Part shown: positions 18,760 to 51,985 of the stretch, one piece after another | Layout: the number at the start of each line of letters is the position of its first letter | Numbering within the stretch: the first letter of the stretch is position 1 | Notes under the pieces: model-generated | The model's database searches: none | Told to the model about the DNA's origin: nothing | Seen by the model: the letters and a program-made list of their open reading frames with translations, nothing else | Made by a program: the position numbers and the translations under genes | Virus record (IMG/VR): IMGVR_UViG_2721755676_000001 | Origin: a virus | Lineage: Duplodnaviria > Heunggongvirae > Uroviricota > Caudoviricetes | DNA length: 64,000 bases | Reading direction: 5' to 3' (one strand)

Positions 18760-18832
18760 GATTTGTAAGCCTTGTTTAAACAAATAAGATAACAACTTGT
18801 TTAAACACATAAAAAAGAAAAAGGAAAAACAC

Positions 18833-19975
18833 ATGTCATATTCAACGTTCCGTTTGGGTGCTAATGATGCAACCAAAGAGCCTATGTTCCTCGGACAATC
18901 TGTCAACGTGGCACGTTACGATCAGCAAAAATACCGTGATTTTGAAAAGTTGATTGAACGTCAATTGTCTTTCTTCTGGCGGCCGGAAGAAGTTGATATT
19001 TCGAGCGATCGTATCGACTTCAACACGAAGCTGCGGGACCACGAACGTCACATTTTTCTGAGCAATCTCCGTTATCAAACGTTACTCGATTCAGTTCAGG
19101 GACGTAGCCCAAATGCAACGCTGCTGCCGCTTATCTCTATTCCTGAACTGGAAACGTGGGTTGAAACGTGGTCTTTCTCTGAGACTATCCATAGCCGCAG
19201 CTACACCCACATTATTCGTGGCATGGTGGACGATCCGAGCATTGTTTTTGACGGTATTGTTACGGATGAAGAAATCATCAACCGAGCGATCAGTATCTCT
19301 GCTGAATATGACAGGCTTTATGGGATGACCTGCGAGCGCCAGTCGTTAGGTGAGAAGGAATTTGAGCGTCTGTACGTAAATGAATATGGCTGGGAGCCAT
19401 ACCCTTTGCATCGTCAGCTTTTCCGCACGTTGGTGTCCATTAATGCGCTTGAGGCGATCCGTTTCTACGTAAGTTTTGCATGTACGTTTGCCTTTGGTGA
19501 ACGGAAGTTGCTTGAGGGTAACACCAAAATTATGCGCTTTATTGCCCGTGATGAAGCTCTGCATTGCGAAGGAACTGAACGCATGATCCGCTTCATGCGT
19601 ACCGGTCGCGAAGGTTTATTGTGGAAAGAGATTGCTGCTGATGAAGAAAACGTCATTTACGACACCATGAAATCAGTCGCCGAACAAGAAATGAACTGGG
19701 CAGACTATCTCTTCAAAGACGGTTCGATGATTGGTTTAAACGCGGATATTCTCAAAACCTATGTAAAATACCGCACCAATCTGGCTATGAATCGTCTTGG
19801 CCTGAAGGCTTTATTTCCAGAAGTTACCACTGACCCGCTGGTCTGGATGAACAAGTGGTTGTTAACCGACACACTGCAAATTGCACCACAAGAGGCAGAG
19901 CAAAGCACATATCTGGTAGGTCAGATCGATTCTACCGTGGATAAGGCTTCTCTAAGCCAGTTTGCAGACCTGTAA
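18833..19975 (+). CDS. nrdB: Ribonucleoside-diphosphate reductase small subunit
   Basis: Di-iron ligand motifs ([19 protein letters not shown]...DEALHC); start MSYSTFRLG preceded by AAAGGAAAAACACATG. Confidence 0.95.
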
Positions 19976-20052
19976 ACCGATACAAAGCATTATGTGGCCT
20001 GGCAACGCTGGGCCACAATGGATCACAAGAATTAAGAAGGAACAAAACTAGC

Positions 20053-20922
20053 ATGAACTTTACCAAACTGACTGACCACCTGAAACTTGCCACCGATCGA
20101 CTCATTGGATTTAAGCCAGAACCATATGAATTGCATGAAGGCCATGGTGTAGCCACTGAAAGTATTTACAAGATGGTCGATCAGTTTCATGAACTCTTCC
20201 AGCATCCGAGACGCGTTATGCCGACACCAGAGCTGCTTCGTCTCCGTGCAAGCCTGATTCATGAAGAAGCTGTAGTGGAAGGTATTCCAGCCGCAATGAA
20301 TGGGGATATTGAGCAACTGCTGGATGCAATGGCCGACTTTTTATACGTTGGTGTTGGTACGATGGTCGCCATCAAAGGTGGTATTTCTACCGGCATGACT
20401 TATTACACGCAGGAACAGAGCATTGATCGCTTTATGCAGACAATTTTTGTGCCTGGTAACACTGTTTTCGATGATATGGCAATGCCATTTCAGGAAGCTC
20501 GTGAGGCGTCATGTATGCTCGAAGAGCTGGCAGATAAACTTGAGAAGAAGACTGTTAAGGATTCTGAGCTGATTCAGGAACTGCGCCGTGTAATGAACAA
20601 AATCTATGTGGCGTGCATGATGACTTATCGACTGGCTGATTTTCTCGGTATCAATGTCGTCGAGCTGGTTGGCGAAATTCATCGGTCCAACATGACAAAA
20701 TTATGGCCTGCAGATGCCGAAGAGCGTCGCCATGCTGTGGCCAACTGCAAATACGACTCTTCTGACCTGGGATTTCGCCATGCTGATGGCACCGATAAGA
20801 TGATCGGTTTTCGAATTTCCGATGGAAAGATTCTGAAGTCTCCAACCTATAGTGATGTCGATTTATCCTCCTTTGTTGAGCAAGCTAAAGCCTCAGCAAT
20901 GTACGGAATGATCAAAAAATAA
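20053..20922 (+). CDS. Hypothetical protein, possibly MazG-like all-alpha NTP pyrophosphohydrolase
   Basis: EExxxE (HEEAVVE) followed by ExLLDAMADFLYV resembles the MazG/HisE metal-binding pattern; weak. Confidence 0.4.
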   Translation: MNFTKLTDHLKLATDRLIGFKPEPYELHEGHGVATESIYKMVDQFHELFQHPRRVMPTPELLRLRASLIHEEAVVEGIPAAMNGDIEQLLDAMADFLYVGVGTMVAIKGGISTGMTYYTQEQSIDRFMQTIFVPGNTVFDDMAMPFQEAREASCMLEELADKLEKKTVKDSELIQELRRVMNKIYVACMMTYRLADFLGINVVELVGEIHRSNMTKLWPADAEERRHAVANCKYDSSDLGFRHADGTDKMIGFRISDGKILKSPTYSDVDLSSFVEQAKASAMYGMIKK

Positions 20923-21066
20923 TTGTAGGTAGTTATCTATCTGTGTATATTGCGCTGGCGCGTTAAATTTCTGAAACAACTATTCGTTTTTGGTGGCCTA
21001 TGGCCACCATTTTTTTATCTATCTGGCCTTGTTCCCTCAATAAATGTAAACTCACTTAATGAATAA

Positions 21067-22197
21067 GTGGTTACTTATCTTTGTGAGGTTTTTGTGTCAC
21101 TCCTTTTGAATCGTGAGCATACGAACGGTCAGGTAACAAACGCATCGTATGCAAAAGTTATTGAGACGGTGCTTAAAAGCGGCGTGCAGGCTGATGATCG
21201 CACAGGCACTGGTACTTTAAGCACCTGCTACGTTCCCTCTTACTACATGCTTACTGGTGGGACTGTGCCGCTTATTTCTGGAAAGGCGGTAAATCTTAAG
21301 CCACTGCTTGTCGAACTTGAGTGGTATCTGAAAGGCACGGGCAACATCCAATTTCTCAAGGATAACGGCGTTAAGATTTGGGATGCATGGGCCGATGAGA
21401 ATGGCGATTTGGGGCCGGTTTACGGTAAGCAGTGGCGTCGATGGGAAGATACCCGCATCGTGAGCCATAGTGAATATCTGAGCAAGATCGCTACTTTCCG
21501 TGAACGCGGGTACAAAGTCGAGGGATACCTGGGTATCAGTGAAGATCGCGTAGTGCTGTCCCGTGAAATCGATCAGCTACAGCGTATTGTCGATACACTG
21601 CGCACGAACCCTACCGATCGTCGCATCATGCTTAACGCATGGAACGTAGGCGAGCTTGAGGATATGAAACTGCCACCTTGCCACTTTGTCTTCTCTTTGT
21701 GGAGTCGTGAACTGGATTTTGAAACCCGTTTAACGATGGCAACTGACATTGGTCTTCAACACAGTCGCCTCGGTTATGAGTCTATCTACACCAAGATGCT
21801 ATACGATCTGGAGATGGACGGCAGTGTTACTGAAACTGAACTGGATGAACTTGGAATCCCCAAACGCATCCTCAACTCCTGCCTCGTACAGCGTAGCGTA
21901 GACACTTTTGTTGGTATGCCATTCAATATTGCTGGCTATGGCATTCTCACTCATTTTCTCGCGAAGATTACGGGTCACATGGCCGGTGCATTTGTGCATT
22001 TTGGCTTTGACGTGCATTTGTACAACAACCACATGGAAGGTGTGTGTGAGCTAATGCAACGACAGGCTCCAGAGCATTCAGATCCGGTCGTTATATTCCC
22101 TAATGAATGGTCTGAGCTGGATGATTTCAAATGGGACGAGATTCTTATTCTTGGCTATGCCCCTCTACCGTGGATCAAGGTTCCAGTGGCGGTGTGA
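21067..22197 (+). CDS. thyA: Thymidylate synthase with two internal insertions; true start may be downstream (GTG 21094 or TTG 21112)
   Basis: DRTGTGTLS, ELEWYLKG, IWDAWADENGDLGPVYGKQWRRW, LPPCH, VQRSVD, MPFNIAGY, C-terminal YAPLPWIKVPVAV collinear with E. coli ThyA. Confidence 0.9.
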   Translation: MVTYLCEVFVSLLLNREHTNGQVTNASYAKVIETVLKSGVQADDRTGTGTLSTCYVPSYYMLTGGTVPLISGKAVNLKPLLVELEWYLKGTGNIQFLKDNGVKIWDAWADENGDLGPVYGKQWRRWEDTRIVSHSEYLSKIATFRERGYKVEGYLGISEDRVVLSREIDQLQRIVDTLRTNPTDRRIMLNAWNVGELEDMKLPPCHFVFSLWSRELDFETRLTMATDIGLQHSRLGYESIYTKMLYDLEMDGSVTETELDELGIPKRILNSCLVQRSVDTFVGMPFNIAGYGILTHFLAKITGHMAGAFVHFGFDVHLYNNHMEGVCELMQRQAPEHSDPVVIFPNEWSELDDFKWDEILILGYAPLPWIKVPVAV

Positions 22198-51514: not shown

Positions 51515-51523
51515 GGATTTGCC

Positions 51524-51790
51524 ATGACGTTAACCGATAAACAAAAGGACATCATCAAAACGCTCAATCTCGGTTATGAGCGAGGTCATCTACTTGACCT
51601 GGACGAATTGCTTGAAGTTTTGCCGTACAAGACAACCAAGCAAAGTATCCAGTTCTCAATTCGCGCTCTGATAAAAAAGGGGCTGGTGGAGAAAGGGCAT
51701 ACGCGCCAACGCAGTGACAATCGCTATCACCGCCGAACTCTTGGGTTAACCACTTTAGGTCGAGCCAAAGCGAAGTTACTGGTGATGTAA
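51524..51790 (+). CDS. Small basic protein, possible winged-helix DNA-binding protein (88 aa)
   Basis: Basic, helix-rich; upstream of packaging module. Confidence 0.4.
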   Translation: MTLTDKQKDIIKTLNLGYERGHLLDLDELLEVLPYKTTKQSIQFSIRALIKKGLVEKGHTRQRSDNRYHRRTLGLTTLGRAKAKLLVM

Positions 51791-51823
51791 TCGGTCTGGG
51801 AGCTTATTTAAAGACCTGCTTCT

Positions 51824-51870
51824 GTATATATAAATAATAAGTAACTTATTAAATATATACGGAAGCAGGC
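51824..51870. terminator. Second copy of long hairpin CCTGCTTCTGTATATATAAATA...ATATACGGAAGCAGG
   Basis: Same arms as 26545-26602. Confidence 0.5.
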
Positions 51871-51985
51871 TTCGTAAGACATGCCAGACCTAATTAAACA
51901 CCCCAGAAAACAAGTTGGTTAGCAGATGCAGTAAACAAGTTGTTTTAGAGCGCATGGACGCGCTCTGTGTGTTTTAGAGGGATCT

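Follow-up and report, generated by a model that had tools for sequence, protein, structure and literature searches.

The motif and its copies in the window

The DNA analyzed here is a 64,000-nt stretch (the window) of a virus of the class Caudoviricetes, IMG/VR record IMGVR_UViG_2721755676_000001, and the feature in question is a 19-base near-palindrome, AGAAAACAA-N-TTGTTT(AAG), that recurs before its genes. The palindrome contains a 6-1-6 core, AAACAA-N-TTGTTT, which forms a 13-bp dyad. Positions 28000-42000 of the window were approximately 97% identical, over 91% of their length, to Cyrano (the phage-plasmid pLF82) and to CMS-2020a, with Salmonella phage SSU5 and Klebsiella phage-plasmids as more distant relatives. 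The window aligned to Cyrano from approximately 47 kb onward, across the end of the Cyrano record, and up to approximately 12 kb; thus, judged by alignment, it is an SSU5-like phage-plasmid of Escherichia coli.

The motif was strongly overrepresented. Exact copies of GAAAACAA-N-TTGTTT occurred five times in the window (0.03 expected), and the 13-bp core AAACAANTTGTTT with at most two mismatches occurred 19 times (6.3 expected), a count reached in none of 100 shuffles. The 19-bp dyad AGAAAACAANTTGTTTTCT (AGAAAACAA-N-TTGTTTTCT) was matched at 14 or more of 18 positions by 16 sites, compared with 0.48 expected, and at 15 or more positions by 10 sites (0.05 expected). Core matches with at most one mismatch numbered 14, of which nine were intergenic on a crude map of open reading frames (ORFs) that left 13% of the window intergenic (binomial P = 1e-5), and 13 were intergenic once start codons had been corrected from the Cyrano annotation. 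The core matches all lay 5′ of plus-strand genes. An Rfam scan returned no family overlapping the motif.

The recurrent palindrome that a first-pass annotation had reported before genes is therefore real, and its copies are biased in position toward gene starts. An AT-rich composition, under which such a frequency would mean little, was not found: G+C content of the window was 40-54%, so composition does not explain the excess. All 15 positions given by that annotation carry the motif or part of it, but 29746 should read 29736, and 33408 and 38141 hold the left arm only. The dyad had been called perfect; the core is indeed a dyad with an unconstrained centre, but the outer bases are asymmetric (AGA... 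vs. ...AAG). The sites are listed below, with O1 denoting upstream inverted copies and O2 the downstream position of the same promoters.

18787..18805 (+): AGATAACAACTTGTTTAAA between nrdA and nrdB, ending 27 nt short of the nrdB start codon (ATG 18833); a possible -10 (TAAGAT) overlaps its first bases; the orthologous SSU5 copy is at 70216
29006..29024 (+): copy before a TerB-like gene (Pfam TerB; ATG 29046)
29735..29753 (+): copy before the gene at 29769, 10 nt past the -10-like CACAAT (29719-29724); terminator hairpin upstream (29632-29653)
30449..30467 (+): copy before a DUF4942 gene (ATG 30477), 10 nt past the extended -10 TGCGATAAT (30430-30438)
33357..33375 (-): O1, CTTAAATAAATTGTTTTCT, 16 nt before TGTGAAAAT (33389-33397), centre at approximately -38
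33408..33416 (+): left arm alone (AGAAAACAA) at the O2 position of the preceding promoter; the gene behind it is interrupted by an IS1 fragment
36980..36998 (-): O1, CTAAAACAATTTGTTTTCT; the -10 of this promoter is TGAGATAAT (37012-37020)
37031..37049 (+): O2, AGAAAACAAATTGTTTAGG, centre 51 bp from that of the preceding O1; abuts the Shine-Dalgarno sequence and ATG (37052/37058)
38140..38148 (+): isolated left arm (AGAAAACAA, no right arm) in an A/C-rich, possibly non-coding stretch; membership uncertain
38346..38364 (-): weak O1-type copy, TATAAACAACTTATTTTCA (13/18); the orthologous SSU5 site is at 90737
39527..39545 (+): AGAAAACATGTTGTTTAAG, 10 nt past TGCGATAAT (39508-39516); likely ATG 39555
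40011..40029 (+): motif copy 11 nt past TGGTATTAT (39991-39999); gene start approximately 10 nt further on
40915..40933 (-): O1, CGATAACAATTTGTTTTCT, 16 nt before TGTGAAAAT (40947-40955); O2 position of the same promoter degenerate
41679..41697 (+): copy before the gene at 41715, 11 nt past GATAAT (41662-41667)
51905-51923 and 51930-51948 (+): two copies, 25 bp apart, in the late-operon leader (terS ATG 51986), followed by a terminator-like hairpin and T-run (approximately 51949-51975) and by the ribosome-binding site before that ATG

The late-leader copies before terS number one in the Klebsiella element pJN2-26 and two in SSU5. In the rest of the replicon, examined in Cyrano, SSU5, and pJN2-26, the motif also precedes parA, a DnaB-like helicase gene, and a cobT-like gene. 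A description of the motif as the mark of the early-gene set that reappears before terS is thus too narrow, given these copies and the one before nrdB.

Two of the listed regions have further peculiarities. The IS1 fragment (130 bp, window 33403-33600) is 99% identical to IS1 in P1 and SfIV and marks a deletion relative to Cyrano, at which Eae/Ea22-like genes and the gene of a UmuD-like S24 peptidase are missing; the break is internal to the motif promoter and separates its -10 from its downstream copy. The stretch 38000-38640 looks non-coding and is A/C-rich and strongly skewed (GC skew -0.13, AT skew +0.18), with isolated motif arms.

Promoter geometry, conservation, and expression in the lysogen

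The motif kept a fixed distance from promoter elements. A -10 hexamer, mostly GATAAT or TATTAT, lay exactly 10-11 nt upstream in 20 of the 33 forward sites of the window, SSU5, and pJN2-26, and 14 of those 20 carried the TG of an extended -10 (TGnGATAAT), whereas the distance from motif to start codon varied from 12 to 37 nt. The motif is thus anchored to the promoter and not to the ribosome-binding site (RBS). If transcription starts approximately 7 nt past the -10, the motif would span approximately +5 to +23, with its centre at +14, and would thus follow closely on the start of approximately a dozen promoters of the element. Mapping against predicted -35/-10 elements, which the first-pass annotation had proposed, worked for the -10 but not for the pair: a generic sigma-70 scan requiring a -35 showed no excess and missed these promoters, as expected for extended -10 promoters.

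Second copies were found at three promoters of the window (33357, 36980, and 40915) and at several in relatives. They always lay 16 nt before the -10 and were centred near -38, at 51 bp centre to centre from the downstream copy; the upstream sequence (CTTAAACAA-N-TTGTTTTCT) exactly inverts the downstream consensus (AGAAAACAA-N-TTGTTTAAG). The surrounding scaffold (a CCTTTT box, TGnGATAAT, and a ACACCAACA spacer) was conserved as a whole, and terminator hairpins preceded many motif units.

The motif recurred with unchanged architecture elsewhere in Cyrano and in SSU5, pJN2-26, the divergent Klebsiella element pMB7868_2, and Yersinia pestis pMT1. Across 80 related viral contigs, AAACAA-N-TTGTTT was the dominant 6-1-6 palindrome, with 285 copies compared with 40 for the next. 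In 13 orthologous promoter families drawn from E. coli, Salmonella, and Klebsiella elements, identity was 96% in the left arm, 89% in the right arm, and 39% at the centre base, compared with 81% in the -10 and approximately 52% in the flanks. By sequence comparison, the motif is the most constrained non-coding element of these genomes. The promoter-proximal AGA and an A at position 17 were also conserved. At the cobT site, the stronger arm was on opposite sides in Cyrano and SSU5.

Published RNA sequencing of the LF82/Cyrano lysogen gave values of 5.7-25 (median approximately 7.5) for genes directly behind motif promoters, compared with a prophage median of 9.8 (PMC9928086, supplementary file 2). 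Individual values were 7 for terS, 8 for the cobT-like gene, 13 for nrdB, 21 for the helicase gene, and 5.7-13 for seven early genes; the parA operon, at 50-89, was the only motif-bearing operon clearly on (PMC9928086). Motif-promoter genes were therefore at background, except for the parA operon, in a data set that sampled the lysogenic state. Cyrano is inducible by ciprofloxacin. Because near-consensus extended -10 promoters were silent in the lysogen, we infer that the motif promoters are actively repressed. In the same data, the 44-codon CYRAN_81 was among the highest lysogen signals (117 vs. a background of 9.8); it is annotated in Cyrano at the region corresponding to 26940-27440 of the window, a 500-bp stretch without a convincing ORF or an Rfam match, which may encode a non-coding RNA.

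Taken together, the dyad, its free centre, the fixed geometry relative to the -10, the inverted copies at 51 bp, and the conservation pattern make an operator for a dimeric DNA-binding regulator, as first proposed, the best reading of the motif, with binding itself a prediction. We consider it probable, though well short of certain, that the motif is a putative double-stranded DNA operator common to a regulon of promoters read by host RNA polymerase, and the most likely role of this operator is that of a docking site for one element-encoded repressor that silences genes in the plasmid state. A palindrome with a free centre suits a binder of double-stranded DNA with two-fold symmetry and has no purpose in single-stranded RNA. 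Action at the DNA level is further argued by the inverted copies upstream of the -10, the flip of the stronger arm at cobT, and the nrdB copy that seems to overlap its own -10.

Under the operator reading, a unit would consist, from 5′ to 3′, of a terminator hairpin, an optional inverted operator near -38, the CCTTTT box, the extended -10 (TGnGATAAT), a spacer of 10-11 nt, the operator AGAAAACAA-N-TTGTTTAAG at approximately +5 to +23, a short unstructured leader, the RBS, and the gene. An element-encoded protein with two-fold symmetry would bind both arms and, sitting at +14 alone or jointly with the -38 copy on the same face of the DNA, would block RNA polymerase. Early, nucleotide-metabolism, replication, and late-leader units would thereby stay silent during plasmid life.

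Several observations weigh against this reading. Position 17 is A and not T, and neither this outer asymmetry nor the better conservation of the left arm is predicted by a simple homodimer. A few copies lack such a promoter, for example, SSU5 87622, which lies between convergent genes. The +1 position was placed from the -10 alone, and binding is likewise predicted. The silence in the lysogen could also reflect an absent activator or mRNA decay. In addition, Drgb1, a distant Pectobacterium element, keeps the scaffold, including AGAAAA at the equivalent place, but lacks the right arm, so some of the left arm may be promoter sequence.

The arrangement resembles that of C1 of P1, also a phage-plasmid, where a single short operator is found at many promoters around the genome, including that of a replicative helicase gene, overlaps or follows the -10, and is present in two copies at some promoters. 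The P1 sites are asymmetric 17-mers to which a monomer binds, whereas the sites described here have a 13-bp dyad core. No C1 homologue was seen here.

Other readings of the repeat

The palindrome could also act as RNA. The first-pass annotation had suggested that the arms pair into an AU stem near the RBS that serves as a translational operator, but the motif alone folded at only approximately -0.7 kcal/mol, and leaders were no more structured than their shuffles (mean z -0.23). Among 315 unique sites, one of nine double variants was complementary, and one-sided arm changes were many. An RNA hairpin was thus rejected, given its folding energy and arms that do not covary.

Recognition of the unpaired leader by a protein is a separate matter, for which the window encodes a candidate binder.

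44255..44773 (-): FljA-like gene (Pfam Flag1_repress); predicted tandem Hfq/Sm fold

The product is a full-length Flag1_repress protein (E = 1e-68) and was modelled as two Hfq/Sm domains, which would give the element a member of the FljA family with an RNA-binding fold. Such a protein would bind the 5′ leader RNA, block translation, and trigger mRNA decay, in the manner of FljA on fliC mRNA; the motif lies within the inferred 5′ leader at nearly every site, near the RBS. The system recalls the FljA/fliC leader of Salmonella phase variation, with the same protein family present in the window and a target that would be a short 5′ leader beside the RBS. FljA-type repressors act post-transcriptionally on fliC mRNA, blocking its translation (PMC2652032), which favors the RNA-level reading. 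The FljA-like gene is expressed in the lysogen, and the protein is kept in Klebsiella elements. Klebsiella has no flagella, which suggests a target inside the element. Drgb1, which has no dyad, carries an extremely diverged FljA-like gene.

The remaining evidence runs the other way. Recognition of single-stranded RNA makes no use of a free-centred palindrome, and the hairpin is neither stable nor maintained. The inverted copies stand upstream of the -10 and thus outside the transcript of that promoter; the orientation flip at the cobT site and the apparent overlap of the nrdB copy with its own -10 are equally awkward for an RNA target. The FljA-like protein is variable (36-100% identity), whereas the motif is invariant. 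A resemblance between the motif and the fliC leader of Salmonella (both contain CAAGTTGT) was rejected: with 105 flagellin leaders retrieved, the best position-weight-matrix score in the Salmonella leader was at chance level, equalled by 13-28% of random windows. In contrast to a fliC-type target, the motif behaves as a DNA dyad. A translational operator read by the FljA-like protein is therefore an unlikely explanation in our estimate, and an Hfq-like FljA homologue reading the same sequence on mRNA is less likely than the partition adaptor considered below.

A second alternative dispenses with a dedicated regulator and treats the motif as an intrinsic part of promoter and leader, in which an A-rich initial transcript and T-rich sequence ahead of the Shine-Dalgarno site would be under selection for strong initiation and translation, the palindrome being a by-product. 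The conservation of the whole promoter as a scaffold (CCTTTT box, TGnGATAAT, and ACACCAACA spacer), the lack of structure in the leaders, and the persistence of the Drgb1 scaffold with AGAAAA but no right arm would all fit. However, exact complementarity of 6 + 6 bases has a chance of approximately 1 in 4096, the right arm is kept even where the Shine-Dalgarno sequence lies 15-25 nt further on, and the inverted copies at -38 and the copies far from any RBS are left unexplained. Promoters this good should be active, yet their genes were at lysogen background. We regard an intrinsic element as improbable, even more so than the RNA-level operator.

The promoter units also coincide with mosaic junctions. 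Edges of homology blocks fell at 36980 (start of an SSU5 block), 37051 (end of Cyrano), 39543 (end of pJN2-26), and 40941 (end of SSU5), and different cargo genes were found behind the same cassette in related phage-plasmids. The repeated cassettes thus serve as gene-shuffling joints, as do the promoter-early stem-loop (PeSL) cassettes of T4-type phages, with which they share a stem-loop terminator and a conserved early promoter flanking small variable genes, as well as mosaic junctions at the cassette. Accessory genes are exchanged between elements at these cassettes.

Whether shuffling is also what the approximately 70-bp cassette is conserved for, as a PeSL-like patch of homology that lets small genes be exchanged, is a further question. 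The homology blocks of the window with Cyrano, SSU5, and pJN2-26, which begin or stop at cassette or motif edges, speak for it, as do the differing genes behind one cassette and the terminator hairpins in front. Recombination requires similarity but no dyad, and the palindrome is far more conserved than its cassette neighbors and has a free centre. PeSLs are defined without an operator dyad, whereas the dyad is here the most conserved part of the cassette. Sites also stand before unshuffled core genes (parA, helicase, and nrdB). It is more likely that the repeats give rise to shuffling at the cassettes than that they exist for it, and shuffling leaves the dyad unexplained; a primary role as a recombination linker is the least probable of the readings considered and, in our judgment, highly implausible.

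Other sequence features were recorded in the same regions. A second palindrome, ATAAGTAACTTAT, occurs only once in the window (51815-51871), where a long hairpin ahead of the late promoter carries it in its loop. Many genes in pMB7868_2 have related palindromes (TAAGTA...TACTTA) in front of them, and many in Drgb1 have palindromes of the GTATTTAAATAC type; together they may form a second, lineage-variable operator family. The sequence CGGAAGCAGGCT...CCAGACCT(G/A)A stands behind a long AT-loop hairpin, both at 26590-26640 (before the gene at 26684) and at 51860-51900 (before the late operon); because no sigma-70 -10 is evident there, it may be an activator-dependent promoter. The stretch 42200-42800 looks non-coding and contains GTGATTATGTGAAAAATCAC-type repeats and several hairpins. 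Elsewhere, Rfam matched a group II intron domain (65 bits) at 5429-5515 (+), immediately 3′ of an ORF (3902-5425, +) whose length, 507 aa, would suit a group II intron maturase; the ORF lies in the recombinase (RecA/UvsX-like) region, and "RecA" spans 2.3 kb in Cyrano compared with 1.1 kb in SSU5.

Candidate binders and significance

If the motif is an operator, the most likely single binder is a ParG-like protein whose gene follows parA, outside the window, although this identification is tentative, with odds below even. The protein has 119 aa (Cyrano 29975-30334) and is encoded just after a small ParA (222 aa) on the same replicon; its sequence pattern suggests a ribbon-helix-helix fold. The parA leader carries the motif in Cyrano, SSU5, pJN2-26, and pMB7868_2, and the motif is the sole block conserved there between lineages. 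The parA operon was on in the lysogen (50-89), which would fit a repressor that regulates its own operon. Between Cyrano and pJN2-26, the last 95 codons of the gene showed 36 synonymous differences and one non-synonymous difference, and the protein was the most conserved in a panel of 14. In pMB7868_2, IKSRTMS and FTRSDVIRAAI (the putative beta-strand and second helix) were kept at 51% overall identity, and the motif was unchanged. Protein and motif were thus co-conserved in four lineages, whereas Drgb1 has the protein without the dyad.

Other features of the ParG-like protein count against the assignment. No Pfam family matched the 119-aa protein, which offers a beta-strand/helix pattern only, and the Drgb1 orthologue matched RHH_1 below the Pfam threshold (E = 0.019). 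Drgb1 contains no dyad at all, yet it retains the protein, whose putative beta-strand (KSRTVSM) is nearly identical. In classical type Ib systems the centromere is an array of repeats, whereas parA has one upstream dyad and the other copies are dispersed singles or pairs. Two further elements contributed little: pMT1 has the FljA-like gene and intact sites but apparently no ParG-like gene and is too recent a derivative to inform, and pYZ22CS094_1 has a par module broken by IS5 and hence was uninformative.

The closest parallels are Omega of pSM19035 and ParG of TP228. There, too, the gene of a small ParA precedes that of a small protein with a basic tail and a ribbon-helix-helix-like pattern (here predicted), the par promoter contains the site, two short inverted subsites adjoin each other, and one protein could serve segregation as well as repression of several promoters. 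Omega and ParG systems bind arrays of 4-7-bp repeats at few promoters, whereas the present element has approximately 18-20 single dyads at lytic phage promoters. If the ParG-like protein is the binder, the sites would double as dispersed partition sites. A broader proposal, somewhat more speculative than its role as binder, is that this partition adaptor is also the master silencer of the lytic programme, acting through approximately 20 dyads that would be both centromeres and operators at +14/-38 of early, replication, and late-leader promoters.

Binding by some other protein, which would work in the lytic cycle either as an activator or in the shut-off of early genes, is also conceivable. 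Candidates are encoded in the window, and a host factor is another.

48599-49965: two ParB_N proteins (KorB-like); ParB_N domains confirmed
51524-51790: 88-aa protein before terS, adjoining the terS copies; 78-84% identical across lineages

The operator of KorB has the same 6-1-6 format as the motif, which together with the confirmed ParB_N domains and the conservation and location of the 88-aa protein favors such a binder. The KorB sites OB of RK2 and the SopB centromeres of N15 resemble the present sites as 6-1-6 palindromes numbering about a dozen, at or near promoters. In N15, the sites used for partition are located in regions of lytic genes, where they influence late expression (Ravin, Rech and Lane 2008, as cited in PMC11652158). 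The binders of those sites are ParB-family helix-turn-helix proteins, whereas the ParB_N genes here were silent in the lysogen. Because both the ParB_N and the 88-aa genes read at background (5-9.5), their products cannot explain the silence of the lysogen. We know of no host regulator whose consensus fits the motif; those of IHF, KdgR, DeoR, and boxA, compared by eye only, did not fit the key bases. A binder of this kind appears doubtful, slightly more so than an RNA-level operator.

Two further proteins were considered and set aside. CYRAN_45, annotated as "putative repressor" and of Xre type, is an unlikely binder: its own intergenic palindromes differ (GGTAAGnnCTTACC), no motif is found there, and SSU5 lacks the gene yet has the motif. 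The palindromes beside it in Cyrano (42575-42825; GGTAAG-NN-CTTACC) are distinct from the motif and are probably the operators of CYRAN_45 itself. A ribbon-helix-helix-like protein of 92 aa (46694-46972) gave a low-confidence model, with a predicted local distance difference test (pLDDT) score of 70, and is too variable: its pJN2-26 counterpart shares only 52% identity, and none was detected in pMB7868_2, although that element has the motif. It was rejected.

SSU5-like phage-plasmids abound in E. coli, Klebsiella, Salmonella, and Enterobacter, and approximately 800 PLSDB plasmids carried the ParG-like and FljA-like marker genes of this study; some such elements carry resistance genes. The control of lysis and lysogeny in these elements is essentially undescribed so far: a 2024 review names no regulator for the SSU5-like group, and the motif appears undescribed in the literature searched. 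The regulon sequence offers a handle for finding the repressor, a map of the repressed gene set, and ready-made promoter cassettes. If the ParG-like protein is indeed the silencer, one protein would run both plasmid segregation and the maintenance of lysogeny across the whole SSU5 supergroup.

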